A DNA stretch of 32,000 nucleotides from contig OY969938.1 in assembly GCA_963704755.1 (NCBI GenBank), forward strand, positions 2,520,001 to 2,552,000. The letters are read 5' to 3'. This DNA comes from an uncultured Chloroflexia bacterium. GTDB taxonomy: Bacteria; Chloroflexota; Anaerolineae; Anaerolineales; Anaerolineaceae. Shown piece by piece: positions 1-30,690 of this stretch (within the stretch, counting starts at the first letter, position 1; each line of letters starts with the position of its first letter). A program made the position numbers and the translations under genes. Below the pieces are notes generated by a model, which saw only the letters and a program-made list of their open reading frames with translations, was not told where the DNA came from and searched no databases.

Positions 1-87
1 GTCCGATAAACAGGAGGTTCAAATGATCACATTGAAACATACATGCAACCGGTTTGTCACGGCCGGTCCGGAAAGGTAGGCGGGGCT

Positions 88-1277: not shown

Positions 1278-1682
1278 ATGTATCACACGATCATCCTGGC
1301 CGGCAACCTGGGAAATGATCCGGTCATGCGCTATACCCCCAACGGACAGCCGGTGACCACATTTTCTGTGGCGACCAACCGCCAGCACAACCCGGCGGAT
1401 GGCAGCGGGCCGGTTAAAGAAACCACCTGGTTTCGCGTGACTACCTGGGGCAAGCAAGCCGAGGTCTGCAACGAGTACCTGCGCAAGGGTACCAAGATCC
1501 TGGTCGAAGGACGATTGACGCCTGACCCGGAAACGGGTGGGCCGCGCATTTTCAACCGGCAGGACGGGTCGGCCGGCGCTTCTTACGAAGTCACGGCCAC
1601 CACCGTGCGTTTTCTGTCCGCTAAACAGAACGACGAAACCAACAACCCGGCCGCCAATTCCACGGATGACATCCCTTTCTAA
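1278..1682 (+). CDS. ssb: Single-stranded DNA-binding protein
   Basis: OB-fold SSB signature at the N-terminus (MYHTIILAGNLGNDPVMRYTPNGQPVTTFSVATN ... TTWFRVTTWGKQAE). Canonical acidic C-terminal tail ending DDIPF. AAAGGAG RBS lies 7 nt upstream of the ATG. Confidence 0.9.
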   Translation: MYHTIILAGNLGNDPVMRYTPNGQPVTTFSVATNRQHNPADGSGPVKETTWFRVTTWGKQAEVCNEYLRKGTKILVEGRLTPDPETGGPRIFNRQDGSAGASYEVTATTVRFLSAKQNDETNNPAANSTDDIPF

Positions 1683-3563: not shown

Positions 3564-4100
3564 ATGCAAATCGACACAACCCACCTTATCCCCCTCTCGA
3601 TCCCGGTCCCGCCGGACCCACTGTTGGAACAGGCGCTGGGCTACAACCGCCAGGCGCGTTTTTTTGCCACCTGGTGGCAGCCGGAGGGTGACGAAGCCAT
3701 GTTCAGCGACGGTATCGTATCGGGTACCGGTCTATGGATCGGTTACCTGGCCTACGTGCAGCACGACCGGGTCTTCGCCGGGCTGGCTCATTATGACCTG
3801 GGCGGTTCGGACCGCCCGGCCAAACACTGGCTGGTGATCGACCGCCAGGAACGCAAGGCCTACATCGCCTGGCCAGCCGAAGCGCGCGAATTCCTGGCCC
3901 ACCAGTGGCCGCAGCGCGTGGTGTCACTGGATATCCCGGAAATGGAGCAACTGATACAGACCATCAACCGCTGGCTGGCCGAAAACAGCCGAGCAACAGT
4001 TGGCGACGCGCTGGCCTGGATGGAAGTCAACCAGCAGGCGGTCGATGCCTTGCTGGCCTGGCTGAACGAACCGGGCGATAACGGGAGGAGCTCAGCATGA
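3564..4100 (+). CDS. Hypothetical protein (178 aa, Trp-rich)
   Basis: ORF with a GGAG RBS. Its stop overlaps the dnaN start (ATGA overlap at 4097-4100), implying translational coupling. No recognisable motif. Confidence 0.65.
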   Translation: MQIDTTHLIPLSIPVPPDPLLEQALGYNRQARFFATWWQPEGDEAMFSDGIVSGTGLWIGYLAYVQHDRVFAGLAHYDLGGSDRPAKHWLVIDRQERKAYIAWPAEAREFLAHQWPQRVVSLDIPEMEQLIQTINRWLAENSRATVGDALAWMEVNQQAVDALLAWLNEPGDNGRSSA

Positions 4101-5236
4101 CCGACCTGACTCTCGAGAAAGCACCATTGTCGCAGGCGTTGGCGATCGTGACCCGCGTGGTCTCTGCACGGCCCACCCTGCCGGCGCTCGGTACGGTCTT
4201 GCTGAAAAACGAAGAGGGCCGCTTGAGGTTGGCCACAACCAATCTCGAAATCGGCCTTTCGTGCTGGCTGGATGCACAGCAGGATGGCGATTTCTCCATC
4301 GCGCTGCCGGCGCGCACCTTCAGCGACACGGTCAATGCCCTGGATGGCAAAGATACCGTCCAGATCCACGCCAACGGCGAGGGTAAAGTCAGTCTGAAAA
4401 GCGGCGGCGCTCGCACCGTGCTGATCGGCTTGAACGCGGACGAGTTCCCACCTTTGCCCGAAGTTACCGGCCAGGGTAACCTGGCCATAAGCCTGGTCGC
4501 TTCTGAAATGAAGGAAGCCATCCGGCAGGTAGCTTTTGCGGCGTCGATGGACGACGCCCGCCCGATCCTGCAATGCGTGCACGTGGAGTTGGATCAAGAA
4601 ACCCTGCGCCTGGTAGCCAGCGATGGCTTCCGGCTGGCGGTGCGTACACTGCATCTGCCGGAACCGCTGACCCAGCCGGTCCGATTTAACGTCCCGGCGG
4701 CTTCACTTAAAGAGCTGGCCAGGGTTTTACCGGACAGCCAGGAAACCTTTCGGCTCTACTGCCTGAAGAACCGCAACCAACTGGCCTTCCGGTTGGACGA
4801 CGTCGAACTCGTTACCCAGGTGCAGGAAGGTAACTTTCCAGACTACCGGGCGATCATTCCTAAGAGCAGCAAGCTCAAGGCAACGCTGGCCACCCAGGAA
4901 TTGCTCAACGCCTGCAAACAGGTGGAGATCATCGCGCGTGATGGCAACAACATCGCCATGTTCGCCTTTTCAGCCGCTACGGAAGGGAAAGGCAGCCTGG
5001 TCATCTCGGCCCAATCCGAAGAGACCGGGTCGAGCGAGATCGCGGTTCCACTACAGAAGCTGGAGGGGATCGACCTGGGCATTGCATTCAACGTCCGCTT
5101 TGTTAGGGACGTGTTGGAAGCGGTGAAATCCAGGGAAGTGACCTTCGAGGCTAATGCGGATAACACGCCGGCGGTGATCAAGCCGCTTGGCGGAGAGGAG
5201 TACTTGTATGTCGTGATGCCGATGCATAAAGGTTGA
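4097..5236 (+). CDS. dnaN: DNA polymerase III beta sliding clamp
   Basis: 379 aa, typical clamp length. N-terminus L..AL..V.RVVSARPTLPALGTVLLKNEEGRLRLATTNLEIGL. Middle RPILQCVHVELDQETLRLVASDGFRLA. C-terminus ...YLYVVMPMHKG. All are typical of DnaN. Confidence 0.9.
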   Translation: MTDLTLEKAPLSQALAIVTRVVSARPTLPALGTVLLKNEEGRLRLATTNLEIGLSCWLDAQQDGDFSIALPARTFSDTVNALDGKDTVQIHANGEGKVSLKSGGARTVLIGLNADEFPPLPEVTGQGNLAISLVASEMKEAIRQVAFAASMDDARPILQCVHVELDQETLRLVASDGFRLAVRTLHLPEPLTQPVRFNVPAASLKELARVLPDSQETFRLYCLKNRNQLAFRLDDVELVTQVQEGNFPDYRAIIPKSSKLKATLATQELLNACKQVEIIARDGNNIAMFAFSAATEGKGSLVISAQSEETGSSEIAVPLQKLEGIDLGIAFNVRFVRDVLEAVKSREVTFEANADNTPAVIKPLGGEEYLYVVMPMHKG

Positions 5237-5359
5237 CAAGGAGGGAATTTTCCAGAAGGTAAACCGTCTCTTTATATCTTCACACAATCCCTAAATTTTT
5301 GAGTAAACACACTTTCTTGTTTCTCAAAAGAACAAAATTTAAAGGCTTTTCCCATCCTT

Positions 5360-5398
5360 GGCTGTCCAAAAAGCAAATTTCTGATTTTTTGGACAGCC
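5360..5398. terminator. Bidirectional terminator-like hairpin at the left edge of cargo A
   Basis: GGCTGTCCAAAAA (5360-5372) pairs with TTTTTTGGACAGCC (5385-5398). A/T tracts flank both sides. It lies between the convergent dnaN (+) and the 2-TM gene (-). Confidence 0.6.
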
Positions 5399-5594
5399 CT
5401 TTCTGCACTAGCGATACAATTGAATTTACATAGGGGATGCTTGATTTTGAGGCTATTACTAAATATTTTTCTCACGAGTACTAATAAAACCAATTAACCT
5501 TCAAAAAAGTTTCAATCAGTTGATTTGAAAAGCCGGTAAATCCAAGAGTTATATTTTTATTGTGAAGCGATTATGACCATGCGATAAGCATTAA

Positions 5595-6383
5595 TTATTT
5601 ATATATCCAATTTGTAGAAAAATTTCTCTCTGCCAATTTGGAAATATAGGGAGAGAAATCAATTTGAAACCTTGATTCACATTTGGAATTGTCTTGTTGT
5701 GTCAAAACCAAAACCTTCCCTGTTTTGATGGGTTTAATACTTTTTCCAAATAAAACATACCACAAAGCTGGATCACATATTTGTCTTGCAGATACTACTT
5801 CTAAACAGGAAAGTTCTTGTCCTGGCTCAGATTCAATTGTAAAACCAACTTGAGAATCAAGAAAGCCATCTTGAATATCCATTTCAACAATCAGATTGCT
5901 AAGAACCGTTTTATGATCATACTTTCTGTCGAATGAGATATTCAAACATCTTCTTCCGCCAAACGGTATTACATTTATTGCAAAGATCATATTAGGATTA
6001 TCGTTCAAATACACCTTAAAGTTACTTAGTTTTCCCGGCCCTGACATAAGCGGCAATATATAAGTTTGGGAGTCCTTGCTGAAGGATAATGTAAGTGTCT
6101 TAATTAATTTCGCTTCTTTTCCAAGGCGATCAAGTATTATTAATTGGTCTTTGCATTCAAGAATGCCAATTTCGGTTTCTCTTGGCGAGATACTTATCTT
6201 TGTCGTTACAAGAATAACAATTAATACTAAACATGTTGTAGTAATTATTGATATAACCATTAACCAAACAATATCCTTAGAATAGGCTATAAAAAATGTG
6301 ATTGCATTTAAAAGGCCGGAAAATATGGTCAAACTGAAAGGAAAGTAATATTTTAGATTTTCTAAAAACACATCTCTATTCAT
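5595..6383 (-). CDS. Membrane-anchored protein: two N-terminal TM helices plus a soluble domain of about 195 aa of unknown fold
   Basis: 262-aa ORF. Hydrophobic stretches FPFSLTIFSGLLNAITFFIAY and IVWLMVISIITTTCLVLIVILVTT. GGGGGA RBS lies 5 nt upstream of the ATG, and the start is 11 nt after the stop of the 70-aa peptide ORF. Low-GC codon usage matches the rest of the cassette. Confidence 0.7.
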   Translation of the reverse strand: MNRDVFLENLKYYFPFSLTIFSGLLNAITFFIAYSKDIVWLMVISIITTTCLVLIVILVTTKISISPRETEIGILECKDQLIILDRLGKEAKLIKTLTLSFSKDSQTYILPLMSGPGKLSNFKVYLNDNPNMIFAINVIPFGGRRCLNISFDRKYDHKTVLSNLIVEMDIQDGFLDSQVGFTIESEPGQELSCLEVVSARQICDPALWYVLFGKSIKPIKTGKVLVLTQQDNSKCESRFQIDFSPYISKLAERNFSTNWIYK

Positions 6384-6394
6384 GAATCCCCCGC

Positions 6395-6607
6395 TTAAGA
6401 CGACCGATCCATATGACCACTATCTGAATACCAATCAGAGTGATCTGAATGATCCGGATAAGCCCCCTCCTCATTTTTGGTTGTAATTGCAATTTCATCT
6501 AATAGGCTTGAAATGATTTCTTGCAAAGCAGGTTTATTCTCAATGCAAATATCATTAATATCGATAATTGGTGAAGAAATAGTTCCAGATTTATTAAATT
6601 TCAACAT
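6395..6607 (-). CDS. 70-aa acidic peptide with C-terminal HSD-HSD-WYSD-SGH tail; candidate substrate or partner of the adjacent rSAM/SPASM enzyme
   Basis: Its ATG overlaps the last codons and stop of the rSAM gene (ATGTTGA, 6601-6607). The sequence ends ...EEGAYPDHSDHSDWYSDSGHMDRSS. Short ORFs are easy to over-call in AT-rich DNA, so confidence is moderate. Confidence 0.55.
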   Translation of the reverse strand: MLKFNKSGTISSPIIDINDICIENKPALQEIISSLLDEIAITTKNEEGAYPDHSDHSDWYSDSGHMDRSS

Positions 6608-7686
6608 TTTTTACGCCTTTCTAAAGAGAAGCGAATATGATCAAACAACATATAGTACGATCTGCAAAAATAGTCTTTTTCAAAGTTTCCGGAACCGAAA
6701 TATCCCAAATAACTACACCCCCCATGGCAAATAGAGAAATACCTGCAACCCAAACAGGATTGAATTCTATTATACATAATATTTTGAAAGTCAATTAATT
6801 GTTTTGAGCACAAGATTTCTTTTATATTAGCTTCAAACATATTACCCAGAAGTGTTTGGCTTTTACTCCAACGTCCACATATGTAAACATCCCCGGTAGC
6901 ATCGATCGCGAAATGATTAAATCCACAACTTCCAGAGAACTGGCAAAACTTTGGATGCCCAGTGAGCATGGACGAAATTATTGACTTAAAAGGTTCAATG
7001 GAAAACGTAAACTTTTCTAAGCAAATCCACTTATCATACAAACGACATAAGAACGAACCATATTCTTCTGGATCAACCAAAAGGTCCATATATTTTGTGC
7101 CATATCCAAAAATTGGGTTTAGCATTAAATTGAGATTGTTGTCTTTGAAAAAGTCAAAAAAAGAAGTTTCTCTTTTTATTGTTTCTTTAGTACAAACAGC
7201 AAGTATGCCGACTTTGCCGTCTCCTTTCCGTTCTTTAATATCCTTAAAATTCATAATGTTATCCAAAATAATTCTATTTTTTTGCTTGTCTATAGACGAT
7301 TGGGTACTTTGATGAAAAAGGTTTAATTCTTTTGGCCCATCATAACTTATCCCGACACCAAAATTGTTATTGAGAAAGAAATTTATGAACTCATTGTTAA
7401 GTAGAAGAGCATTTGTTTGAATCTTGTTTTGAAAGTTAATACCAGTAAATTGTTTTTGTAAGCAGACTACGTCTTCATAAAATTTTTTGCCCAATAATAA
7501 GGGTTCGCCACCATGCCATGTAAATGAAACTTTTCCCCCCAGCGGAAAATAGTCATTAATTTGTGAAAGCAGAACTTTAACGAAGTCAATATCCATCTTT
7601 TGGGGAGGTTCTCCTCGATTTTCATAACAATAACTACATTGCAAGTTACATGAATTGGTTACTTTGATTATGAAGGAGAGAGACAT
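6601..7686 (-). CDS. Radical SAM enzyme with C-terminal SPASM domain (peptide-modifying / anSME-like class)
   Basis: CX3CX2C cluster motif (VTNSCNLQCSYCYE). SAM-binding GGEPLL (WHGGEPLLLG). SPASM cysteines (CQFSGSCGFNHFAIDATGDVYICGRW ... CLGCRYFSICHGGCSY, i.e. CX2CX5CX3C). Confidence 0.9.
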   Translation of the reverse strand: MSLSFIIKVTNSCNLQCSYCYENRGEPPQKMDIDFVKVLLSQINDYFPLGGKVSFTWHGGEPLLLGKKFYEDVVCLQKQFTGINFQNKIQTNALLLNNEFINFFLNNNFGVGISYDGPKELNLFHQSTQSSIDKQKNRIILDNIMNFKDIKERKGDGKVGILAVCTKETIKRETSFFDFFKDNNLNLMLNPIFGYGTKYMDLLVDPEEYGSFLCRLYDKWICLEKFTFSIEPFKSIISSMLTGHPKFCQFSGSCGFNHFAIDATGDVYICGRWSKSQTLLGNMFEANIKEILCSKQLIDFQNIMYNRIQSCLGCRYFSICHGGCSYLGYFGSGNFEKDYFCRSYYMLFDHIRFSLERRKKC

Positions 7687-7916
7687 CGTTTAATTCTTTT
7701 TTATTCTTCAAAGGATTACATAATAGAATTCCATTATGGTACATGCACACTATCCAATATCCAGAAAATGACACAATATTTCATTTCGTTTTAGGTATTC
7801 CTTATAATACAATGATTATGCAGGGGCTGTTTTTTATAAATTGAGAAAAATTCACAGCCGGGTTAGCGCATATTACCTATTTCCTCAATATAATCCATAG
7901 TCAATATTTTCTTTCA

Positions 7917-9362
7917 TTATCGTGGATCATTAACCCTTAGATTTTCAATAAAGTGTAAGGTGTTTCCGCCTATGATGTTGAATTCAACATATTGCCCAAC
8001 CAAATTTCTACAACGGTTCCCTAAATAGCGCTTTGTCACTTCAGGCTGAACGCTGAAAACGGGTGATGTAATTTCTAGCAAGTAATTTCCATCGGATAAT
8101 TTCTCACCTTTGTTAGTAAATCCATTTGATGTAAATGCCCCATCACTTATATGCACGCTATCTTGTGCAAAATATCCTGTTTCTAGATTTCTTAAAGAAA
8201 GCATTAGTAATGTTTCGGGTGGCATATTACCCACCCCCCGGATGATCAACATATCGTCGTCGAAATAGTGTGCGATGTTCATCGTCGCATTTATTTCCCG
8301 CCCCTCTTCGGGCAACATCATTTCCATATCAGGCGGTAATGGCAATATTTCACCCATTCTGACAGGATTACCGTCATAATACCATCTACCATTTTTTTCC
8401 GTAAAACCTATACCTATTAAGTGTTCTAACCCCATAACGCATAATTGTTCATCAGAAAAATTGGAATACCTAGAGGCTTGGATAATTGTATATCCACGAT
8501 AAACCTCAAGCAATGGAATATTGAAGTACTCAGATACCCGAATAAAAACTAATGCTTCTGCAATATTGGCCTCAAATTCCCCTTCATAATCATCCCAAAT
8601 ACTTTCTGCATAATCATAGATGACTTGAGGGGTTATTCCTTCAATTGAAAAGCTGTGCCGTGGTTCAACAAAATAAAAATCCCCAAGTAGAGCAGAAAGC
8701 TCCCAAGTAAGTTGTCTCCCGTTTGATTTTTCCTGAACATAATACCTAACCATCTTAAAAACATCCTCAATCTTTACACCTTCAGAAGGCAAAAACCTTA
8801 TCAATGCCTCGGCGAAAAAACTGTTTTCTCCTATGCCATCCGTGGCTGTTGATCCAGGGCTCGTTGAATAGGAAATAAACGTTCCCCTTGGGACACTTAC
8901 CGGTAATAAACCCGTTGTAATAATACCTCGGGTGACTCCCAAAGATATGTTAGTTCTACATGCATCGAGGATAACAATATTAGTCTTATCTCCATAGTTT
9001 GCCATCCAATTTAATATACCAGATAACCCAACAGACTCTAATATAATTCTCTCCTGATTGGTATTACTTGCATCAATGGGGATCAAGTAATTCTGGCCAT
9101 GAAATTCAACGCCATGCCCTGCAAAATAGAATAAGCCGACATCAAAACCATTTAATTCTTGACCAAAATCGTATACACATTGTGACAAATCTGCATAGTT
9201 CAAATTGGGAAAAGGCCTGACCATGAAACCAATATTTTCAAGAACAGTAGAAATACCAAGTACATCATTGGCCGGGTTTTGTAATTGCCCCCAATTTTGA
9301 TAATTGTTGTTTCCAACTAGATATGCTAATCTTGTCACTCTTTGCCATCCTTGATTGAGCAT
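7917..9362 (-). CDS. Caspase-like (peptidase C14 / orthocaspase) protease with a C-terminal domain of about 240 aa of unknown function
   Basis: The catalytic His-Cys dyad is in canonical context: LFYFAGHGVEF and TNIVILDACRTN. The N-terminus AYLVGNNNY...L.NP.NDV is typical of C14 domains. Residues from about 240 to 481 have no motif I recognise. Confidence 0.85.
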   Translation of the reverse strand: MLNQGWQRVTRLAYLVGNNNYQNWGQLQNPANDVLGISTVLENIGFMVRPFPNLNYADLSQCVYDFGQELNGFDVGLFYFAGHGVEFHGQNYLIPIDASNTNQERIILESVGLSGILNWMANYGDKTNIVILDACRTNISLGVTRGIITTGLLPVSVPRGTFISYSTSPGSTATDGIGENSFFAEALIRFLPSEGVKIEDVFKMVRYYVQEKSNGRQLTWELSALLGDFYFVEPRHSFSIEGITPQVIYDYAESIWDDYEGEFEANIAEALVFIRVSEYFNIPLLEVYRGYTIIQASRYSNFSDEQLCVMGLEHLIGIGFTEKNGRWYYDGNPVRMGEILPLPPDMEMMLPEEGREINATMNIAHYFDDDMLIIRGVGNMPPETLLMLSLRNLETGYFAQDSVHISDGAFTSNGFTNKGEKLSDGNYLLEITSPVFSVQPEVTKRYLGNRCRNLVGQYVEFNIIGGNTLHFIENLRVNDPR

Positions 9363-9734
9363 GAATAATTCAAATTACCTCGGTAGCTTGCTTATCAGAA
9401 TAAATATGCATTAAGAAATCTTCACCTAAACCGTGTAATAGGCAACCATCCAAATTTAACAAGATTTTCATAAATTTGATAGGGGCTAATCAATTCTTGT
9501 CGTTCTTCTTTTGAATAACAATTCGGATTGTTCATTGTATTACTCTAGAATGCTGTATCTGCTATGTGCTTCATTCCCCCTGCCTGTGAAGACTTGGAAA
9601 TTTTTTGACTATTCCACAAAAAGTTATGAATCTCCAATATCTATTTTACAGGAAAAAGAATATTTGCACATAGAAAAGCATACATTGGAGTTTTGTTCAA
9701 ACCATCGTTAGTGGTTGATCGAATACAAGACATA

Positions 9735-9838
9735 GGAGGATTGACATACTACCATACAAAGACGCCTACCTGCACCAGCAAGTAGGCACAGTGATTCAAC
9801 TGCAAAAGCAGGGCAAAATCTTCATTGGCGCCTACCAA
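9735..9838 (+). pseudogene. Relic of the 5' end (RBS plus first ~31 codons) of a diverged homologue of gene X (11575..12627); start codon destroyed
   Basis: By hand alignment, 104 nt align to 11565-11668 with 14 mismatches. GGAGGATT..ACATACTACCATACAAAGACGCCTACCTG matches GGAGGATT..ACATGCAACCATACGAAGACGCCTACCTG, so ATG has become ATA. Confidence 0.8.
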
Positions 9839-9842
9839 AAGG

Positions 9843-9998
9843 ATTGCTTTCAACGTCCGCTTTGTGAGGGATGTGTTGGAAGCGGTGAAGTCCAGGGAAG
9901 TGACCTTCGAGGCCAATGCGGATAACACGCCGGCGGTGATTAAGCCGCTCGGCAGAGAGGAGTATTTGTATGTCGTAATGCCGATGCATCAAGGATGA
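9843..9998 (+). pseudogene. Relic of the 3' end (last 51 codons plus stop) of a diverged dnaN homologue
   Basis: By hand alignment, 156 nt align to 5081-5236 with 12 mismatches. Ten are synonymous third-position changes in the dnaN frame and two are non-synonymous (G->R, K->Q). The fragment has no 5' part and is out of frame with the preceding X fragment. Confidence 0.85.
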
Positions 9999-10003
9999 AA
10001 AAT

Positions 10004-10026
10004 GGGAGCCCTAATATGGGGCTCCC
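10004..10026 (+). terminator. Hairpin immediately after the dnaN relic
   Basis: GGGAGCCC-TAATAT-GGGGCTCCC, a perfect 8-bp GC-rich stem 6 nt after the relic stop codon. No strong T-tract. Probably the terminator of the donor dnaN. Confidence 0.45.
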
Positions 10027-10238
10027 AAGTCAGACCGGGTTCTCTTGTCTGCCACCCGTCGTTCGTTGTTATGCAGTAGGCATGATAGGCCTGCTGTCAA
10101 AAGAAGGTAAAACTTTGAGAGCAGGATTCTCTGCAAATGTAGAAAAGCTTGTAAACTGAGCAAAATCTAGGAAGTCAGGTTTCTTGTACTGCTGTTTGTT
10201 TACGTTTTTCCTAATTCTTGTAATTGTGCTGTAAGTTC

Positions 10239-11204
10239 TTAAATCTCTTTGCTTAAAGTATCTTTCTGAATTGCTACCTTTTCCATCTCTTGGCTTATTG
10301 TAGAAATAAACGTACTGTACGAATCTAAACTGTTATAAGCAAGGGTATATTGTTGAACAAGGCTTGCTAGATGTTTCCTAGCTTCGTCCGCCTTTCTTGC
10401 GTGCTTGGATTCTTCGTACCTATCACGGTTTTCTCGCCACTCATATTCCTGTCGACGCAGATAATCTGTTACATCGTCATATTCTTGCCAGGTATGCACG
10501 AAAGTGATGAGGTTTATTTCATCCCCCAAAATATTACGGATACTTTGCTCTTCATCTGATGGACAACAAATGACCCTTATGTCTTTATGACTGAAAATCA
10601 ATCCATCTGGATTTGTATATCGCCATTCTCGCTCCCACATGAAACCCTGCGAGGGGTGATTTTCTAGCAAAGGATAAAGAAGGGGATATATGGCAACAAG
10701 AGTATTAACTACTTTTGAATTAATATCCTCTTCGGGGGAAATAATAAGGCCATCATTATTTACTCGATGGATAAGATAATGGATGCTTTTTAATATATCG
10801 TCTTGCACATAAACTACTGGACGCGTTCCTATAGCAACCATTGCGCTTTTATCAAATCCTATTCCAAAACTTTGATTTGCTTTCCACCGTTCAATATTTC
10901 GATAACGAAAGAAATCCAGTGCAAAGGTTGGAGACTCGCTGAAGCAAACCACTTTTGCGTCAAATGTTCCACTCGAGTTGTACTCAGGGATGTTTGCCTG
11001 TAAATAACCATATCCTTCGGGAATTTCTGTAGTTGTACCTTTTCCTTGTAAAATGCTCCTTATTGCATTTTCGCCCGTCATATGAATAAGAAATGGAGAC
11101 ATATCAGGCTTTTCGATTGGTGTAAGTTGAAATGTAGGAGTATCAATTTTGTAATTTTTACTCCATTCAGACCAGCTAATTTGCCTTGATGTCGGTAATG
11201 GCAT
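10239..11204 (-). CDS. Abi-like (abortive-infection family-like) protein with C-terminal coiled-coil
   Basis: Motif series FLIHMTG ... VVCFSESP ... FGIGFDK ... RPVVYV ... GFMWEREWRY. From memory this resembles AbiGi-type and related Abi families. The C-terminal ~80 aa are charged and heptad-like. ATG 11204 (MPLPTS) is preferred; the ORF track starts at a TTG at 11240. Confidence 0.6.
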   Translation of the reverse strand: MPLPTSRQISWSEWSKNYKIDTPTFQLTPIEKPDMSPFLIHMTGENAIRSILQGKGTTTEIPEGYGYLQANIPEYNSSGTFDAKVVCFSESPTFALDFFRYRNIERWKANQSFGIGFDKSAMVAIGTRPVVYVQDDILKSIHYLIHRVNNDGLIISPEEDINSKVVNTLVAIYPLLYPLLENHPSQGFMWEREWRYTNPDGLIFSHKDIRVICCPSDEEQSIRNILGDEINLITFVHTWQEYDDVTDYLRRQEYEWRENRDRYEESKHARKADEARKHLASLVQQYTLAYNSLDSYSTFISTISQEMEKVAIQKDTLSKEI

Positions 11205-11574
11205 ATTTTTCCCTTTGTTATCGGTGAAGCAACCTTGCAATTAATTATACCGACTTCTGCTACTAGTTTGTCAGCCATGCTTTGATAAGTGAAAATCGCG
11301 CTTTTACTCCTGAAAACCGGGAATACTACTTATTAAAGCATGATTGACAGTCTACTACATAGCAGCCAAACAATATTTAAGGGCTGCTTGTGCAATAACC
11401 GGAATTCTAGCTGGGTATGTTCTAAAAAGCGTACCTAAACAGGCGGATTTCTATTCCTTGTTTTTTGGAAACCTGATTGAAAGAAACGGAGATACTATCC
11501 GATTCTACGAAACCTGGGTTAGCTTATGAACCTTGGAAAAATTTCAACGTAGTAAGTATCTATGGAGGATTCAC

Positions 11575-12627
11575 ATGCAACCATACGAAGACGCCTACCT
11601 GCGCCAGCGGGTAGGCGCCGTAATTCAACTGCAAAAGCAGGGTAAGATCGTCATTGCCGCCTACCAAGACGGCACCGGCCTGCCTACCCGGCAGGACTTG
11701 CCCAACCTCAGACCATCCGCCCACCCGCACGACTACGCGGTAGGCGATGCCGGCTACCTGGACTACGATGGCCAGGTCGGCGCGTTCATCTTCACCCCCA
11801 GGCCCGGCGCAGACTTACCCAAGGCGCTGGCTCATTACCAGGAGCTTTCCCTGGCAGAAGCGGTCGTGAACGTGGCGGCCCGGCAGGCGACCATTCAGGT
11901 GAACGACACGGAAATTACCTTCTCCGGCGTCCCGGCCTGGGAGCCGGGTCATACCCTGCTCAAGGAGCTCAACGAAGAACTGGCCCGGACCAACTCAGGA
12001 GTGATCGTCTGGAAGCTCACCTGGGACGAAAAAGGTATGGACTGGCAAGAGCGGCTCTTTCAAGGAGCGGCGCCCAGGCTGCGTAACGGTCAGGCGCTGG
12101 TCCACCTGAGCGGCTACGCCTATGATGAGGATCACGCCCTGGTGTATACCGGCGCGGTGGGGTACAAGACCAGCCTGGAGAGCATCCGGGCCACGCTCCT
12201 GACTGCCAAGCCGCTCACCCTGGCGCACGACGGCCAAGATGTTTTCCTGTCTGTGCTGGACCGCTACGAACAGGCCTGGCAGGCGCTGCCGGAATACACC
12301 AGTCACCACGCGGCTTTCATTGCACGCCAGGCACTGCCCGGCAAGTGGGATCCGCAGGATCCATTCGCTTACCTGCTGGTCTTTCGTTCCGCTGCCGGCG
12401 CGGAGGGGGAAATGCTGCGCCTGTTCGCCGAGCGGCTGAAAGAGACCCTGGAAATCCCGGTCCTGGACCGTTGGGCGCCGGAACTGTGGAATGCGGCCAG
12501 AGAACAAAGCGCCATCCACAACCTGGTGACCGCCGGCGACTGCCTGGCCGGCTGCCGCATCAGCCTGCAAGCCGACTGGCTAGGCCTGATCACCGAGCTA
12601 CTAAAACAGGAAGCGATTACGCTGTAA
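11575..12627 (+). CDS. Hypothetical protein X (350 aa), right flank of the cargo hotspot
   Basis: ATG 11575 is preceded by GGAGG. G+C content jumps sharply at this point. No motif recognised. The track start at 11533 is a TTG lying in AT-rich DNA. Confidence 0.75.
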   Translation: MQPYEDAYLRQRVGAVIQLQKQGKIVIAAYQDGTGLPTRQDLPNLRPSAHPHDYAVGDAGYLDYDGQVGAFIFTPRPGADLPKALAHYQELSLAEAVVNVAARQATIQVNDTEITFSGVPAWEPGHTLLKELNEELARTNSGVIVWKLTWDEKGMDWQERLFQGAAPRLRNGQALVHLSGYAYDEDHALVYTGAVGYKTSLESIRATLLTAKPLTLAHDGQDVFLSVLDRYEQAWQALPEYTSHHAAFIARQALPGKWDPQDPFAYLLVFRSAAGAEGEMLRLFAERLKETLEIPVLDRWAPELWNAAREQSAIHNLVTAGDCLAGCRISLQADWLGLITELLKQEAITL

Positions 12628-12679
12628 GCCAAATCAACTGAAGGCCGTCGCATGAAAACGGCGGCAAATCCACCATCCC

Positions 12680-12737
12680 GGAGGGGACGTACCTGGCTTC
12701 CCTCGCGGGGAGGTAGTGCGTCTCCTCCGCATTTTTT
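12680..12737 (+). terminator. Long hairpin plus T-tract between gene X and the MTase-helicase gene
   Basis: GGAGGGGACG (12680-12689) pairs with CGTCTCCTCC (12720-12729) and is followed by GCATTTTTT. It lies inside the unlikely N-terminal extension of ORF 12652. Confidence 0.5.
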
Positions 12738-12753
12738 ACAAGGAGACGCACAC

Positions 12754-15700
12754 ATGAGACCCCCTGCCATCGAAAAGATGGGGTACTACCCTACCCCGAA
12801 TACCGTTCTAGAACTGCTCAAAACCTGCGTGGCCCCCGGCGAAGTCCGCGGCCGGCTGCTCGACCCGTGCGCCGGGGAGGGCAAAGCCGCCGGTATACTG
12901 GGCCGGGCGTTCAACTGCCTGACCTGGGGCGCAGAACTCTCCCCAGGCCGGGCCGAGAAGGCCTCCCAGGTGATGGACCGCGTGTACAACACGGCCTGGC
13001 AAGCCTGTGGGCTGAACGACGAGACCATCACGGTCCTGTTCTTGAACCCGCCCTATGAGACCGATCGTTTCGACAGCCACAAGCGGCTGGAGTACGATTT
13101 CCTCAAATCCACCACGACCAAGTTGGTCCGCGGCGGGCTGCTGATCTACATCATTCCCCAGAAAGTACTGGGACTGGTGGAAGTGGCCCGCCTGCTCACC
13201 AACCACTACGAATGCTTGCAGGCTGCCCGCTTCCCGGATGGGGAATACGAGGCTTTCAAGCAGGTGGTGGTGCTGGCATACCGGCGTAAGGTGTACCGCA
13301 TTGCCAGCGATGAGGAAATCCTGGCGATCCAATCCCTGGCTACCCAGGACCTCCCGGTTCTGCAAGCACAACCGGAGCCGCTTTATCACCTGTCGGCCGC
13401 GCCCGAACGTGGTTCGAATGGCAAGCCGGCCTTGTTCAAGCGCAACGATTGGGAGCCGGAAGAAGTCGTCGAAGCAACCCGGGGATGCGGCGTCCAGCAG
13501 ACGAAAGAATGGCTGGACCTGCTCAACCCGGGCCGGGGGACGGCCGAACTGACCCGGCCGGTCATGCCGCTCAAACGTGGCCACATCGCCATGCTGATAG
13601 CCTCCGGCATGATGGGAACGGTGAAACTGGCCGACGAAAAAGGCCGCCCTATGTTGATCAAGGGCCGGGTGGTCAAGGTGGTCGAGAAAGTAGGCGAACA
13701 CGACGACGGCGAGACGGTCACCGAGACCTACCGGGACCGCTTCGTCACTACTGTGGCCGTGTTGAAGAAAAGCGGCATCGAGACCATCCAGGATGTCAAA
13801 GGGCTGGCAGAATTCATGCGCGCGAACGGTGACAAGATCGCCGCCCACGTGCTGGAGGCTTACCGGCCGCTGTACAACCTGGATCCGACGTCCGCCGAGA
13901 TGGCCATCCTGGACCACCTGGGCAATGGCCGTAAAGCCTTGCCGGGGCAGTCCGAACCGGGTTTGCTGCCCGCCCAACGGCACGCCGCCGCTGCGGTAGC
14001 GCGCTGCATCCGGCGCAACCGGGTGGCCAATATCCAGGCGGAAATGGGTGTTGGCAAGACGACCATCGCCTGTGGAACGATCGAACTGCTAAACGCCTAC
14101 CCGGCGCTGGTGCTTTGCCCGCCGCACCTGGTCCCCAAGTGGATCCGCGAACTGGAAGAGGTGATCCCCGGAGTGCAGGCGCGCGAGCTGCGCCGCATCG
14201 GCAAGACCGGGGATGCGACGACGGACGTGAACGACGTCGACCGGTTCCTGGCAGACTGGCATAGCGGCCGGCTGGGGTCGAAAGCGGTGGCCGTCATGGC
14301 CAACACCTCGGCTAAAATCGGCTCAGGTTGGGAGCCGGCCGTCGTGACGCGCAAGGTGCGGGACGTACTGACCGGCCAGATCGTCAGCGCCTGCACCTGC
14401 CCGGCCTGCGGTGCGGTGATCTACGATGACGAAGGTTTGCCGTTGACCGGCCCAGCCGAACTGGCCACCAAACGCCGCTTCTGCCGTGCGCGGGTGCCCG
14501 GCTGGGAGCTGGATGCCGTTGGCAGCCTGCAGAGGGACGACCAGGGCAACCCCACCTGGGGCCGGCGACCTTGCAATACGCCTTTGTTCCGCTTCGGCGG
14601 AGCCCGGCGCTGGTCGCTGGCCGAATACATCGCCAAGCACGCGAAAGGCGCGTTCAAGCTGCTGGTTGCCGACGAGTGCCACGAGTTCAAGGGCAAATCC
14701 TCGGACCGTGGCATTGCCTTTCACCAACTGGTCACTTCCTGCCGGGCGACTCTGACCTTAACCGGGACCTTCTTCGGCGGACGGTCTACGTCGATCTTCT
14801 GGTTACTGCATCGCCTGAACTACGGCGTCCGGCGCGATTTCGCCTACCACGACGAGAAGCGTTGGGCACGGCTGTACGGCGTGCTGGAAACACAGCGCAG
14901 CCGGCGCAGAAGTGACGAGGAGGACGAAGATGGCGTGTACACCGGCAACCGGCGTTACCGCAACCAGGCCAAAGAGCAGCCCGGCGTCAGCCCGGCCATC
15001 GTCAACCGTCTGCTGGATACCACCGTGTTTCTCAGCCTTAAAGACCTGGGCCTGGCGCTGCCGGACTACAAGGAGGAAGTCAGCGCCTTGACCATGCTAG
15101 AAGAGCAAGGGCAGCAGTACCGCCAGATGGATGGTTCACTCAAAGCCCTGGCACTGCAATCCAACCGCTACCTCTCGACCTGGCTGCAGTGGAGCCTGGC
15201 GCGGCCGAATTCCGCTTTCCGGGATGAAGCCGTGATCGTGGACGAACTGGACCGCAAAGGCAGGCTAGTCCGCACCGTTCCCTTGATGGAACTGCCGGCG
15301 ATCAACCCAGATAGTCACAAATGGCTGCCTAAGGAAAGCTGGCTGGCGAACTTCTGCCGGACCGAAAAGCTGCAAAACAGAAAGGTGCTGGTATACGTCC
15401 GCCAGACCGGTAAGCGCGATATCCAGGACCACCTGCTGGAAGCCCTGGAAGGAAATGGCCTGCGGGCAACCGTGCTCAGCGGAAACGTGGACCCGCGTAA
15501 GCGCGAGGAATGGATCGCCAAACGGGCCGGCCGGCTGGACGTGCTGATCTGCAACGCCGAGCTGGTCAAAACCGGTCTCGACCTGATCCAATTCTCCTCG
15601 GTGGTGTTCTATGAAATCACCTATTCCCTGTACACCTTATGGCAAGCTGTCCGCAGGGTGTGGCGGCTGGGCCAGATTCACCCGGTGCGGGCCGTGTTTT

Positions 15701-16068
15701 CGGTCTATGAAGGCACCATGGAAGCCCGCGCTCTATCGTTAATGGGGGCAAAAATGAAGGCTGCGCAGTTACTGTATGGAGATGAGGTCGGCGGAGCGAT
15801 CGTCCCGCAAGAAGACGGCGATCTGTTGACCGAGTTGGCCCGCGAGGTGCTCAACGGAGCAGACCTGCCCGACCTGCAAACCCTGTTCGCCGACGAGATG
15901 AAGGTCAGCAATAACCCACTGGGCAGCCTGACCACACCCAGTGCAACCATCCTGCCTTGCGAGAAGGTACTGACCTGGTCGGATTGGATGGCGGAGAGGG
16001 CTGTGGTGATGAGGAAGAAATCCAGGAAGGAGGTAGTTCCGGAGGGTCAGATGGGATTCGGTATATAA
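12754..16068 (+). CDS. N6-adenine DNA methyltransferase / SNF2-family helicase fusion with a Cys-rich insertion (DarB-like or conjugative-element anti-restriction-like architecture)
   Basis: MTase motif I LLDPCAGEGKA and motif IV FLNPPYE. Helicase Walker A AEMGVGKTT, motif II ADECHEFKG, motif VI QAVRRVWRLGQ. Cys cluster ACTCPACGAVIY...RRFCRA...RRPCNT lies between motifs I and II. ATG 12754 (MRPPAIEKMGYYPTP) follows AAGGAGA. Confidence 0.9.
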   Translation: MRPPAIEKMGYYPTPNTVLELLKTCVAPGEVRGRLLDPCAGEGKAAGILGRAFNCLTWGAELSPGRAEKASQVMDRVYNTAWQACGLNDETITVLFLNPPYETDRFDSHKRLEYDFLKSTTTKLVRGGLLIYIIPQKVLGLVEVARLLTNHYECLQAARFPDGEYEAFKQVVVLAYRRKVYRIASDEEILAIQSLATQDLPVLQAQPEPLYHLSAAPERGSNGKPALFKRNDWEPEEVVEATRGCGVQQTKEWLDLLNPGRGTAELTRPVMPLKRGHIAMLIASGMMGTVKLADEKGRPMLIKGRVVKVVEKVGEHDDGETVTETYRDRFVTTVAVLKKSGIETIQDVKGLAEFMRANGDKIAAHVLEAYRPLYNLDPTSAEMAILDHLGNGRKALPGQSEPGLLPAQRHAAAAVARCIRRNRVANIQAEMGVGKTTIACGTIELLNAYPALVLCPPHLVPKWIRELEEVIPGVQARELRRIGKTGDATTDVNDVDRFLADWHSGRLGSKAVAVMANTSAKIGSGWEPAVVTRKVRDVLTGQIVSACTCPACGAVIYDDEGLPLTGPAELATKRRFCRARVPGWELDAVGSLQRDDQGNPTWGRRPCNTPLFRFGGARRWSLAEYIAKHAKGAFKLLVADECHEFKGKSSDRGIAFHQLVTSCRATLTLTGTFFGGRSTSIFWLLHRLNYGVRRDFAYHDEKRWARLYGVLETQRSRRRSDEEDEDGVYTGNRRYRNQAKEQPGVSPAIVNRLLDTTVFLSLKDLGLALPDYKEEVSALTMLEEQGQQYRQMDGSLKALALQSNRYLSTWLQWSLARPNSAFRDEAVIVDELDRKGRLVRTVPLMELPAINPDSHKWLPKESWLANFCRTEKLQNRKVLVYVRQTGKRDIQDHLLEALEGNGLRATVLSGNVDPRKREEWIAKRAGRLDVLICNAELVKTGLDLIQFSSVVFYEITYSLYTLWQAVRRVWRLGQIHPVRAVFSVYEGTMEARALSLMGAKMKAAQLLYGDEVGGAIVPQEDGDLLTELAREVLNGADLPDLQTLFADEMKVSNNPLGSLTTPSATILPCEKVLTWSDWMAERAVVMRKKSRKEVVPEGQMGFGI

Positions 16069-16074
16069 TTAGCT

Positions 16075-16108
16075 TTGGCTCCGAGAAATTCTCGGAGCCA
16101 ATTTTTTT
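16075..16108 (+). terminator. Rho-independent terminator
   Basis: TTGGCTCCGAG-AAATT-CTCGGAGCCAA, a perfect 11-bp stem followed by TTTTTTT, 7 nt after the MTase-helicase stop. It also marks the switch from GC-rich to AT-rich DNA. Confidence 0.85.
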
Positions 16109-16219
16109 GTCACCGAATTGTTTTTCAGCGAGCAAATGCACATGGCTTGATGAGCAAAATTATCGCATCTTTCTCTACAAATAGCGGGCTAGCAAATCGG
16201 GTAAGATGAAGCTTCCATA

Positions 16220-16248
16220 TTGCTATTAATATATTCTCGACTTCTAAT
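16220..16248 (+). promoter_or_regulatory. Possible sigma70-type promoter for the HTH gene
   Basis: TTGCTA, 17 nt spacer, TCTAAT, located about 65 nt upstream of ATG 16312. This is a pattern match only. Confidence 0.25.
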
Positions 16249-16311
16249 GCACATAATTCGTCCCGCAAGGCTCAATCCTGGATGTCATAATCTGTTCCAA
16301 TAGGGACAATA

Positions 16312-16656
16312 ATGACACAGGAAAATGCCCAATGTTTCATCCAATGGCTGGACAAACAACTGGCGGATAATCGCTTAAACGATCATCAGTTAGCTCAAAA
16401 GGCGGGGATTTCACATTCGGTGATCAGCAAAGCCCGAAAAGGGATTTTGCCCAAGTGGGATGCCTGTGTTTCTATTGCACGGGCTTTAAACGTCGACCCT
16501 ATACAAATTTTCCGTATTGCAGGTTTACTCCAAAATCCGCCAGAATTGGATCCCAATTTCGAAGCGTTGAAATTTTCTTATGGTAAGTTATCACCAAAGT
16601 TTCAAAAAATAGTGATTCGTATAATTCAGATGCTCTCAGAAGAAACCTCCGATTAG
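16312..16656 (+). CDS. XRE/cI-type helix-turn-helix transcriptional regulator
   Basis: HTH_3-like core LNDHQLAQKAGISHSVISKARKGILPKWDACVSIARALNVDPIQIF. AGGGA RBS. Confidence 0.8.
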   Translation: MTQENAQCFIQWLDKQLADNRLNDHQLAQKAGISHSVISKARKGILPKWDACVSIARALNVDPIQIFRIAGLLQNPPELDPNFEALKFSYGKLSPKFQKIVIRIIQMLSEETSD

Positions 16657-16735
16657 ATCCTTTTTATCACCGCTAATTTCGGTCAGGAAAACGCTTCGAA
16701 ATAGATATACCCAATAAATAATCCAATAGGTGCAA

Positions 16736-16778
16736 ATTGCGGAAATCCGCAATAAGCTCGGAAATACAGCGGATTCCC
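16736..16778. promoter_or_regulatory. Operator-like palindromes with recurring GCGGA(A/T)T half-sites
   Basis: Perfect palindrome ATTGCGGA-AA-TCCGCAAT (16736-16753). It overlaps a second inverted repeat GGAAATCCGC ... GCGGATTCCC (16741-16750 and 16769-16778). ATGCGGAAAATG follows downstream. The sites lie between the HTH and response-regulator genes. Confidence 0.3.
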
Positions 16779-16948
16779 GAAGAATTCATGCGGAAAATGT
16801 CAGTATTCAACAAGTTTGGTTAGGTCTATACTTGCCAAAACAAACCAATAAATTACCAAACATAGTCTAAACATATTTCCTCTATCGCAGGGAAAGGGCA
16901 ATCAGAAAACAGCCGTTCCCTGAATAAATACTTTAAGAAAGGTGCTTT

Positions 16949-17593
16949 TTGGATTCGACCGTGCGAACAAATATCTTACTTGTCGACAATCATCCCCTTA
17001 TCTTAATCGGAATCCGATACCAACTTACTTCTTTTCCTGAATTTAATATCGTAGGAGAAGGTATTTCCCGCGAAGAAGTTCTACAAAAGGTCAATGAACT
17101 CGATGTCGATCTTGTAATAATTGGCCTCAATTTGCCCGGTGTCAATATCATTGACCTGATTAAAACAATCAAATGTATTCATCCGAGAATAAAAATTGTT
17201 ATTCTTTCTGCTTGTCGAGATCGAAGCACAATTATTGGATTGTTTACCGCTGGCATTGATGGTTATGTACTAAAAGATGAAGAAGCGGGTAATTTAGTAG
17301 ATGCCATCCATGCTGTACAAAATGGAAAAGATTGGCTGAGTCCAAGCATTGCTTCGCTTATTTTGGGGCGTTTCAAAAATGCTCGCACAAACCCAGGTTC
17401 AAATCAACTAACTGAAAAGGAACAACAACTGATCCACTTCTTTGCGGAAGGATTGACCACAATTGAAATATCTAGCCACATGAATTTGTCAGTTCGAGCT
17501 GTCGAAATGAGAATCACAAACCTCTACAAAAAAATTGGTTTGCGATCGCGGGCCAGTGTTGTTTATTGGGCCAAAGAAAATGGGATTCTTTAG
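16949..17593 (+). CDS. NarL/FixJ-family response regulator (REC plus LuxR-type HTH) with a degenerate receiver
   Basis: The REC fold is readable (ILLVDNHPLILIGI ... KIVILSAC ... GIDGYVLKD). The LuxR HTH is LTEKEQQLIHFFAEGLTTIEISSHMNLSVRAVEMRITNLYKKIGL. The expected phospho-acceptor context ..DLNMPG reads IIGLNLPG. The start is TTG 16949 or GTG 16961. Confidence 0.85.
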   Translation: MDSTVRTNILLVDNHPLILIGIRYQLTSFPEFNIVGEGISREEVLQKVNELDVDLVIIGLNLPGVNIIDLIKTIKCIHPRIKIVILSACRDRSTIIGLFTAGIDGYVLKDEEAGNLVDAIHAVQNGKDWLSPSIASLILGRFKNARTNPGSNQLTEKEQQLIHFFAEGLTTIEISSHMNLSVRAVEMRITNLYKKIGLRSRASVVYWAKENGIL

Positions 17594-17652
17594 ATTTTCC
17601 CGATCCAACAAATAGCTGACCATACCACCAAATTTATACAAGGGGCGTCAAA

Positions 17653-17913
17653 GTGCTTACAGGGGAAGAGAACGTTATTTCGGGTGGCAAATTACTAAAC
17701 GAAGGGGGATATTCGACCTCAATATTTGACCAAGAGATCAAGAATTTATCTCCATCAGACCAGGAAAAGGTGCGTGAGTTCTGCTTCGAATTGGCAATCG
17801 CTTTACGAAGGATAACCGGAATGAAGATCGATAAAGGACTCGAAACATTGCCGGAAATGATCCGCGAAGCGGTAGAAAATGCCAATGGAATTGAATCTAC
17901 CGACCAATCCTGA
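17653..17913 (+). CDS. Hypothetical small protein (86 aa, GTG start) overlapping the recombinase start
   Basis: The only support is an open frame on the same strand with a 35-nt overlap with the recombinase gene. No motif recognised. Confidence 0.35.
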   Translation: MLTGEENVISGGKLLNEGGYSTSIFDQEIKNLSPSDQEKVREFCFELAIALRRITGMKIDKGLETLPEMIREAVENANGIESTDQS

Positions 17914-28061: not shown

Positions 28062-28070
28062 GAGCCCCTC

Positions 28071-29102: not shown

Positions 29103-29105
29103 GGG

Positions 29106-29777: not shown

Positions 29778-29788
29778 TCCGCCGGTGT

Positions 29789-30649: not shown

Positions 30650-30690
30650 TGTAGTAAATCTCCTTGTATACATATTGTGGATTTCAAAAA

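Follow-up and report, generated by a model that had tools for sequence, protein, structure and literature searches.

How do two sets of accessory genes come to lie side by side at one site of a mobile element? Variable cargo sites in such elements are a main source of new defence systems, and the side-by-side placement of several systems within them has mostly been inferred rather than observed. The question is raised here by a window of 32,000 nucleotides (nt) of contig OY969938.1 (assembly GCA_963704755.1, positions 2,520,001-2,552,000) from an uncultured Chloroflexia bacterium (Anaerolineae). In this window, dnaN, the gene for the beta sliding clamp, and a second gene, here called X, enclose two cargo cassettes of low G+C content (GC), A and B, between which truncated copies of both flanking genes form a seam that can still be read. 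All coordinates below are positions within the window, and L-numbers denote related loci collected for comparison. It appears probable, from the sequence comparisons described here, that the segment at 9735-9998 is a non-functional seam within a small Anaerolineae integrative element, at the site where its cargo varies. It is equally probable that this seam records the recombination of two diverged alleles of the element, in which the incoming cassette was added to the resident one rather than swapped for it, a reading for which we infer both the parents and the pathway. Such an outcome seems to have been reached at least three times in a poorly studied phylum.

Structure of the seam

As a preliminary description of the sequence had correctly set out, dnaN comes first and is followed by cargo A, the X fragment, the dnaN fragment, cargo B and full X. 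The parts on which the argument depends are listed here (RBS, ribosome-binding site; aa, amino acids).

4097-5236, plus strand: full-length dnaN, 379 aa, a beta sliding clamp with all three Pfam clamp domains, forming the left flank of the cargo site and found ahead of X in 53 loci
5081-5236, plus strand: resident copy of the duplicated dnaN 3' segment, starting at the conserved I-A-F-N-V block
5240-9734, minus strand: cargo cassette A, 33-40% GC, four main genes, all on the minus strand
9735-9838, plus strand: decayed relic of the X 5' end, RBS and 31 codons, start codon ATG changed to ATA, 87% identical to 11564-11667
9839-9842, no strand: joint, the four bases AAGG, which fit poorly to either parent in alignments to both
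9843-9998, plus strand: dnaN relic from a second allele, its final 52 codons, frame and stop intact, 92% identical to 5081-5236
10002-11563, minus strand: cargo cassette B, about 39% GC, a single AbiGi-family gene
11564-12627 (coding 11575-12627), plus strand: X including its RBS, 350 aa, right flank of the cargo site

Two direct repeats, detected both by repeat search and by self-BLAST, define the seam: 5081-5239 recurs at 9843-10001 (159 nt, 92% identity, E 1e-61), and 9735-9838 corresponds to 11564-11667 (104 nt, 87% identity, E 1e-30). The X relic retains GGAGGA at 9735-9740, and ATA at 9746-9748 replaces the start codon. For this fragment, the 14 mismatches in 104 nt, the RBS and the ATA codon of the preliminary description hold, whereas its position for the resident copy, 11565-11668, was one base too high (an offset of 1829 aligns the two copies and 1830 does not). 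The X and dnaN frames are out of register across the relic, and alignment of the joint to both parents reveals no usable microhomology. A tblastn match that would have extended the dnaN relic upstream to 9693 proved spurious, as it runs through stop codons.

The backbone of the element has a GC content of about 61%, and the interval 5240-11563 one of 33-44%. Both cassettes begin within 3 nt of a dnaN stop and finish 11 nt before an X start. An independent cassette boundary is provided by L073, whose homology to the window begins exactly at 11564, with other genes upstream. Furthermore, cassette B carries a predicted terminator hairpin (10003-10027, minus strand; a 9-pair stem with 7 G-C pairs, then TTTTTC), the T-run of which overlaps the stop codon of the dnaN relic. 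That this terminator abuts the relic stop is as expected if the cassette had once sat right behind a real dnaN.

Origin and decay of the two relic halves

The dnaN relic differs from the resident gene at 12 of 156 sites, ten of which are synonymous third-position changes and two non-synonymous; the alignment reproduces the earlier count. Estimated by the Nei-Gojobori method against the resident copy, with a Fisher test on the synonymous and non-synonymous counts, dS is 0.37, dN 0.017 and omega 0.046 (P = 4e-6). In translation, 49 of 51 residues (96%) match the resident C-terminus, identity to L002 is 74%, and the conserved residues are all unchanged. Of the two non-synonymous differences, one sits at a variable position and the other in the penultimate codon, where the Gln of the relic is shared with three outgroup elements and the Lys of the resident gene is derived. 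Because omega is so low, synonymous changes are in excess and the outgroup Gln has been retained, the differences must have arisen in two functional dnaN genes. The proposal that the fragment diverged inside a functional dnaN of a related element is borne out by these values, and the comparison supports an origin of the relic in another functional allele rather than in a decayed local duplicate.

The history of the X half appears to be different. Relative to resident X, it has synonymous differences in 3 codons and non-synonymous ones in 8 (omega 0.42). A three-way comparison of the relic, resident X and L073 assigns ten changes to the relic lineage, and these hit the family-conserved or invariant residues M1, E5, R12, V26 and A28. 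Of these ten changes, seven replace G by A on the plus strand and none replaces C by T, with 27 G and 30 C available; our own two-sided binomial estimate for this strand bias is P ~0.016. Deamination of a minus strand left exposed might account for the cluster of G-to-A changes by the joint, as might transcription that starts at the cargo A promoter. To judge from these substitutions, either the X half lost its function earlier than the dnaN half or it has accumulated mutations at a higher rate. Possible causes are strand-biased damage or a donor X that was already decaying, L073 being such a degenerate copy. At L073 (2204-3268), X is fused mid-gene to the 3' end of the methyltransferase-helicase gene that normally follows it, which implies a deletion of about 3.5 kb.

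The dnaN-X interval as an exchangeable cargo site

Whether the two flanks delimit a cargo site in general can be judged from the relatives of the element. A scan for X over genomes (one per species) yielded 70 loci, often several per genome. The order dnaN, gap, X, methyltransferase-helicase is found in 52 of them and in further contigs. From dnaN stop to X start, the distance in these 52 loci ranges from 185-214 nt in eight empty sites up to 8937 nt, and gap GC is lower than flank GC in 51 of the 52, the exception being L008. Among the 82 open reading frames (ORFs) of the gaps, 45 sequence clusters can be distinguished. The gaps hold over 20 gene sets with no relation to one another, and almost all of these lie antisense to the flanks. 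Recurrent cargo comprises a PD-(D/E)XK nuclease (11 loci), AbiEi/AbiEii (7 loci) and a MerA-like reductase (5 loci). Matches to PD-Lambda-3_B (E 2.9e-85) and to a ThsB-like TIR protein (E 9e-36) also occur, as do PIN, zeta-like and HEPN proteins, histidine kinases, a sigma/anti-sigma pair and a DUF4209 protein accompanied by a nuclease.

Exchange at this site is also evident from discordant relationships between cargo and flanks. For example, L028, L038, L040 and L035 have flanks that are 95-98% identical and carry a restriction endonuclease, AbiE, c5/c7 or a MerA-like gene as cargo, whereas L056 and L057 share cargo that is 91.6% identical between flanks that are only 67-69% identical. The two flanks can also differ in ancestry, as in L025 and L028, where X is 96.9% and dnaN 76.3% identical. 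Since near-identical backbones differ in cargo, diverged backbones share cargo and flank ancestry is discordant, the dnaN-X interval is, on this comparative evidence, a true exchange hotspot holding a mixture of defence-like and other accessory genes, and one that can be mined for cargo throughout the element family.

The search of relatives that the preliminary description had called for has thus upheld its exchangeable dnaN/X site, given the variable cargo and empty sites among the 52 loci. The site does not, however, appear to be purely intergenic, because crossovers fall inside the last 110-155 nt of dnaN. The label of defence cargo could hold for a part of the content at most: some relatives do carry defence-like genes, but cargo A matches no defence model beyond the generic radical-SAM core and cargo B gives a sub-threshold AbiGi match.

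Seams in other lineages and the shared dnaN breakpoint

Seams were found in three lineages only, namely the window, L079/L080/L081 and L046, and these also have the three largest gaps, all longer than 4 kb. DNA self-comparison was applied to the first 52 loci and protein-level relic scans to all fetched loci, and the latter scans detected no further seam in any of them. In L079, dnaN is followed by a gene for a 946-aa LTD/FGE-sulfatase protein; next come about 160 nt of X 5' relic and about 143 nt of dnaN 3' relic, and then a HEPN gene and X. Its X relic has kept RBS and ATG and is frameshifted, and both halves have decayed, which indicates that dnaN relics are not generally kept by selection. 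L079 and L080 are two assemblies with 21 differences over 19.8 kb, and L081 is a Logan assembly identical to L079; the presence of the same seam in non-identical genomes shows that seams are real and heritable. The joint of this lineage reads X ...P-H-D-Y / N-V-R-F... dnaN, compared with Q31 / I329 in the window. Moreover, identity between the window relic and its own dnaN is 92%, whereas the dnaN proteins of the window and of the L079 lineage (P0251) share about 65%. Because the joints differ and the relic is far nearer to its own dnaN, the two seams are independent. L046 is a modified case, in which the empty-site intergenic region together with the first 21 nt of X has been duplicated (195 nt, 92%); the two copies flank an 8.5-kb histidine-kinase/response-regulator block, and a 34-nt piece of dnaN stands directly before the second copy.

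The three lineages have dnaN proteins that are 41-70% identical, and their dnaN relics start almost at the same codon (window, I329; L079, N332; L046, F331-V333), so that one 12-nt stretch of the motif I-A-F-N-V-(R/K)-F takes in all of these starts. In contrast, the left partner of the relic varies (X codon 31 in the window, X codon ~54 in L079 and the 8.5-kb block in L046), and no convincing microhomology or shared motif was found at the X-side breakpoints of the three seams. By our approximate scan statistic, three breakpoints falling into one 13-nt window of 1140 nt would have a chance of about 4e-4. The plain illegitimate or unequal crossover of the preliminary description therefore needs revision, as the dnaN breakpoints of the three seams share 12 nt and do not look random. 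The most interesting new point here is this recurrent dnaN breakpoint at the edge of a conserved block. In a conservation profile of 47 dnaN sequences (30-nt windows, over the last 300 nt and the whole gene), positions -156 to -127 are the most conserved window of the last 300 nt and the second most conserved of the whole gene, and the window breakpoint is the first base of this block. Candidates for what places a joint at the block edge are trimming of a strand to the edge of homology, a nick or break made by a protein, and a recombinase pseudo-site. The shared breakpoint thus poses a testable question, namely whether stacking is a recombination accident at a homology edge or a directed process.

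The same region is used in ordinary exchange. In a change-point test restricted to locus pairs with upstream dnaN at least 90% identical, divergence jumps between -123 and -109, and this holds for three or more further lineages. Jumps inside the block imply that homologous exchanges cross over there and that, in those lineages, the exchanged unit includes the dnaN tail. An exchanged unit beginning at the breakpoint itself was rejected for the L028 clade, which has no divergence step at -150 and in which only the last ~50 nt are linked to cargo, being more diverged between pairs that differ in cargo.

A short sequence is shared by the block and the other side of the cargo site. The 8-mer TTCAACGT is found both in the dnaN block and at 40-60 nt upstream of X, where the sequence is conserved; it occurs 59 times, against 14 expected. 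In dnaN, it may simply encode F-N-V. Recombination between the two copies of TTCAACGT was considered and rejected, since the joints sit in the X coding sequence and not upstream of it. The non-coding region 40-110 nt upstream of X also contains a palindrome, TTCTGT-N12-ACAGAA, followed by two AACGTTGG repeats, a sequence that occurs 128 times across the loci against 14 expected. This arrangement, found in L007, L017, L020, L022-L025, L028, L035, L038, L040, L046, L050 and L061, is likely to be an operator or an iteron-type site. Of the pre-X region, the window retains only a TTTCAACGTAG remnant, at ~11543-11553.

How the seam may have formed

The following sequence of events would account for the seam. 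Two diverged alleles of the element, one with cargo A and the other with cargo B, would have met in one cell, with a synonymous divergence between them of about 0.3-0.4. The normal exchange between such alleles would be homologous replacement, with crossovers located in the final ~150 nt of dnaN, which are conserved, and within the beginning of X. In this instance, one end of the exchange might have been resolved non-homologously, joining X base +93 to dnaN base -156, while the other end remained homologous. Non-homologous resolution of one end would mean that the incoming cassette is added beside the resident one and does not replace it. The product would then contain one intact dnaN, one intact X and both cassettes, with truncated copies of the flanks back to back between them. 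Three routes could lead there: a cassette fragment with short arms might be circularised and then integrated through a single homologous crossover, a linear fragment might undergo homology-facilitated illegitimate recombination, or unequal exchange might take place between co-resident or tandem elements. All three yield an identical product, and close relatives would be needed to distinguish them. Rad52-like recombinases of phages promote exchange between diverged sequences (PMC3945230), and by analogy the Rad52-like protein of the element could plausibly catalyse the homologous step between diverged arms. We also infer that short, diverged arms may let stacks persist, whereas long identical repeats would recombine and lose a cassette.

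Several observations weigh against this stacking of two alleles. In the collections searched, none of the relatives had cargo A alone or cargo B alone between dnaN and X, and the nearest relatives are distant at the protein level (dnaN 72% and X 73% identical). The closest relative of X, L073 (92.8% over 627 nt), has other cargo, and the closest homologue of cargo B (83%, L074) adjoins an IS3 transposase and has neither a dnaN nor an X flank. The density of non-synonymous changes is 0.111 in the X half and 0.017 in the dnaN half (P 0.007), an unequal decay that one simultaneous event does not predict. A random illegitimate joint likewise does not predict three independent dnaN breaks at most 12 nt apart, and the joint is known from assembled sequence. 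In a metagenome scan with X, only two distant loci were recovered, and an exact look-up of window X and of cargo B returned no database record. Because the nearest dnaN and X are only 72-73% identical, the two parental alleles are reconstructed rather than seen. Thus, the idea of two single-cargo variants in the preliminary description keeps its fit with the recurrent seam layout, but its parents have not been found among the relatives.

The clustering of breakpoints would be accommodated if cassettes were captured in a site-directed manner, with the conserved dnaN block (codon ~329-333) acting as a defined DNA end or recombination site, so that stacking would be semi-regular accretion and not a rare accident. 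Such a site might be of the nick or origin type, a pseudo-site for a recombinase, or the limit to which an incoming strand is cut back; cassettes with this site as their left boundary would become attached to differing positions downstream. This would refine the stacking of two alleles, and we regard it as rather unlikely. It would explain why the dnaN breakpoints of three lineages with 41-70% identical clamps coincide while the partner side varies, a coincidence of about 4e-4 by the estimate given above. It also draws on the exact start of the block at the breakpoint, its rank as the best-conserved stretch of the dnaN 3' end, the homologous crossovers of at least three further lineages within it, and the TTCAACGT shared with the region upstream of X. 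However, the events number only three, the block encodes a conserved clamp motif, so that coding constraint alone may underlie both its conservation and the shared 8-mer, and family searches recognised no relaxase, Rep protein or integron-type integrase among the backbone proteins. In addition, the X-side breakpoints have no common sequence, and in the L028 clade linkage between cargo and dnaN reaches only ~50 nt. A stronger form, in which dnaN codons ~329-333 serve as an entry point of their own within a coding sequence (a site for a nick, for a recombinase or of the origin type), through which cassettes ending in a dnaN tail are captured serially, is a shade more doubtful still. If it were true, it would amount to integron-like accretion of cargo in Anaerolineae elements without an integron integrase or attC.

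A local tandem duplication of the hotspot (dnaN -156 to X +93), followed by replacement of the cargo of one copy through homologous exchange, would give the same X/dnaN joint; tandem duplication via an illegitimate joint is common in bacteria, and the later exchange could account for the fresher look of the dnaN half. Two rare events would then be needed rather than one. Had a crossover taken place in a short arm, some stretch of the arm should also match the resident copy exactly, whereas the mismatches extend over dnaN bases 6-153 of 156 and X bases 9-94 of 104. With differences along nearly the whole length of both arms, such a history is quite improbable. An assembly or read chimera of two strain variants is less probable again: alleles in a mixed sample could in principle be mis-joined, but X +93 and dnaN -156 share no k-mer that an assembler could bridge, which argues against an artefact. 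The copies are also 8-13% diverged, and hence not collapsed repeats, and they lie on a 4.87-Mb contig in which an intact array of 100 clustered regularly interspaced short palindromic repeats (CRISPR) was assembled through. The same architecture, moreover, recurs in L079 and L080, which are non-identical assemblies, and in the Logan assembly. We consider it just as improbable that the relic has been retained for a small protein or a regulatory signal. Its dnaN half is open with conserved residues unchanged, and a 57-codon ORF with a TTG start (9825-9998) is in frame with it. An RBS-like sequence before the TTG was not seen by eye, no systematic scan having been made, and Rfam gave no match. 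The X start codon has been lost, the X and dnaN frames are out of register, and the L079 relic is frameshifted and decayed in both halves. The stacking of two diverged alleles accordingly remains the preferred reading of the seam.

Comparison with known systems

Variable cargo sites between conserved genes are known from several mobile elements, the hotspots of the SXT integrative and conjugative elements being one example. P2-like phages and P4-like satellites contain hotspots for variable anti-phage genes between conserved core genes (PMC9122126). The dnaN-X site resembles those of P2 and P4 in its fixed order of flanks, its variable low-GC cargo, its empty and occupied alleles and its near-identical backbones with different cargo, and several of its alleles match PD-Lambda-3_B, ThsB-like TIR and AbiE. 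It differs from them in its Anaerolineae host, in having dnaN and X as flanks, in also holding MerA-like, sigma/anti-sigma and histidine-kinase cargo, and in carrying a physical seam that appears to record the stacking of two alleles.

Among known systems, the seam is most like the orphan arrays of effector-immunity modules in rhs loci and type VI secretion systems (T6SS). In the T6SS arrays of Vibrio cholerae (PMC5361080) and in the displacement of rhs C-termini (PMC2935791), modules are added and truncated pieces of the conserved gene are left between them. For orphan arrays, one homologous anchor and one illegitimate end have been proposed, homologous replacement being the commoner outcome (PMC5361080, PMC2935791). 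Correspondingly, a truncated dnaN copy lies between successive modules in the window, L079 and L046. There are also clear differences. In the rhs/T6SS arrays, the displaced piece is the 3' end of a polymorphic toxin with its immunity gene, whereas here it is the conserved C-terminus of a clamp, encoded by a gene of housekeeping type, and the cargo is antisense and unrelated to dnaN. The arrays have single-flank remnants, while the seam holds pieces of both flanks back to back (X 5' and dnaN 3'), and, unlike in the arrays, the dnaN-side breakpoint is fixed in three lineages.

Two other kinds of serial insertion deserve mention. Site-specific integration can add genomic islands in tandem at the 3' end of tRNA or protein genes, and staphylococcal cassette chromosome (SCC) composites are formed at rlmH by serine recombinases. 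As in such accretion, a duplicated 3' end of the target gene lies between the inserts, and the element has a serine recombinase. However, neither an integrase nor an att core is present in the cassettes, the repeats measure 104-159 nt and have diverged by 8-13%, and the seam includes the start of the downstream gene too. Site-specific tandem insertion was rejected, as the repeats are 87-92% identical rather than short identical cores and the cassettes contain no integrase. With integrons, the site shares the serial build-up of self-contained or promoter-less cassettes at one position; unlike in integrons, the recognised cassette genes of the window are all antisense to the flanks. An integron was likewise rejected: IntI was not found in the window, the only recombinase of which is the large serine recombinase 8 kb away, and the cassette ends carry no attC-like repeat, the two flank copies being the only repeats that involve the cassette region.

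Contents of the two cassettes

The genes recognised in the cassettes are as follows, with Pfam, NCBIfam and PADLOC searches as the basis for cargo A.

5595-6383, minus strand: protein of 262 aa with no assigned family (cargo A)
6395-6607, minus strand: protein of 70 aa (cargo A)
6601-7686, minus strand: radical SAM/SPASM peptide-maturase-like protein, far below every NCBIfam cut-off (cargo A)
7917-9362, minus strand: caspase-like peptidase C14 (cargo A)
10239-11240, minus strand: AbiGi-family ORF, database gene call of 321 aa (P0121) (cargo B)

Cargo A has no homologues in any related locus compared, and none of its genes matches a catalogued defence model except for the generic radical-SAM core. 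The cargo B gene scores 19.1 bits against Pfam AbiGi, under the cut-off of 22.4, and E 4.6e-5 against the PADLOC AbiGi model; its homologues across many phyla carry PF10899, the AbiGi domain.

Gene X and the backbone of the element

The cargo site is embedded in a backbone that reads Rad52-like, SSB, RadC, three small uncharacterised proteins, dnaN, cargo, X, methyltransferase-helicase, a second low-GC stretch and serine recombinase. Its remaining main features are:

43-1251, plus strand: Rad52-like single-strand annealing protein (Pfam Rad52_Rad22, E 4.6e-19), syntenic in 36 related loci
1278-1682, plus strand: SSB (Pfam SSB, E 1e-27), syntenic in 38 loci
12652-16068, plus strand: DUF6094 methyltransferase fused to a helicase (Pfam), syntenic in 66 loci
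17879-19681, plus strand: large serine recombinase (Pfam Resolvase and Recombinase), right end of the element

The X protein is conserved at 350-355 aa and has an AlphaFold2 (AF2) model with a pLDDT of 86.8. It found no match in Pfam, NCBIfam, PHROG, PADLOC, PDB sequences, PDB folds or phage and plasmid collections. Of its 164 homologues, those with named sources listed and nearly all genome loci come from Anaerolineae/Chloroflexota. The serine recombinase as right end, followed by host genes, recurs in L082, and in L077 and L092 the Rad52-like gene has fragments of insertion sequences (IS) or host genes immediately upstream. These ends suggest a compact integrative element. Genes for conjugation or for a capsid were not seen in the parts available. 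The elements make up a previously undescribed multi-copy family of integrative elements in Anaerolineae. Rfam and tRNA scans gave no match.

The second low-GC stretch (16069-17878, 37-46% GC) encodes a helix-turn-helix (HTH) protein and a LuxR-type response regulator. In relatives, its position is occupied by GmrSD and a type I restriction subunit (L077) or by a TPR protein (L079), and the stretch may be a second cargo site. The methyltransferase-helicase gene is itself interrupted in a number of loci. L046 has an in-frame HINT/intein-like insert of about 350 aa at 13141-14184, L030 one of the same size at the same codon (13146-14189), and L076 a group II intron reverse transcriptase (8573-10390). 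The gene is also interrupted in L027, L032, L039, L055 and L060, and inserts other than those of L046, L030 and L076 measure 2.4-5.5 kb.

Some relatives do without dnaN. A 178-aa backbone gene ends about 40 nt before X in L005 and L039, and a 166-aa backbone gene, the only one detected upstream, ends about 135 nt before X in L053; the clamp gene thus appears to be dispensable for the backbone. Five of the ten contigs with the same X protein (L082-L085 and L087), which are independent metagenome contigs, break off within a few bases of one another about 3 kb upstream of X, on the far side of a 254-aa gene and a trypsin-like cargo gene. This shared end point suggests a repeat, probably conserved backbone, that breaks short-read assemblies.

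Directly after the serine recombinase, the window contains a type I-C CRISPR-Cas system, with an array of 100 repeats (20917-27601) and cas2, cas1, cas4, cas7 and csd1 on the minus strand (27771-31989). Targeting of the element family by a spacer was considered and discarded, the best match being 21 of 34 bases, which was treated as chance. The repeat closest to the element is degenerate. Three spacers of the array are duplicated, including a two-spacer block at 22473-22604 that is repeated at 22605-22736 with 99% identity.

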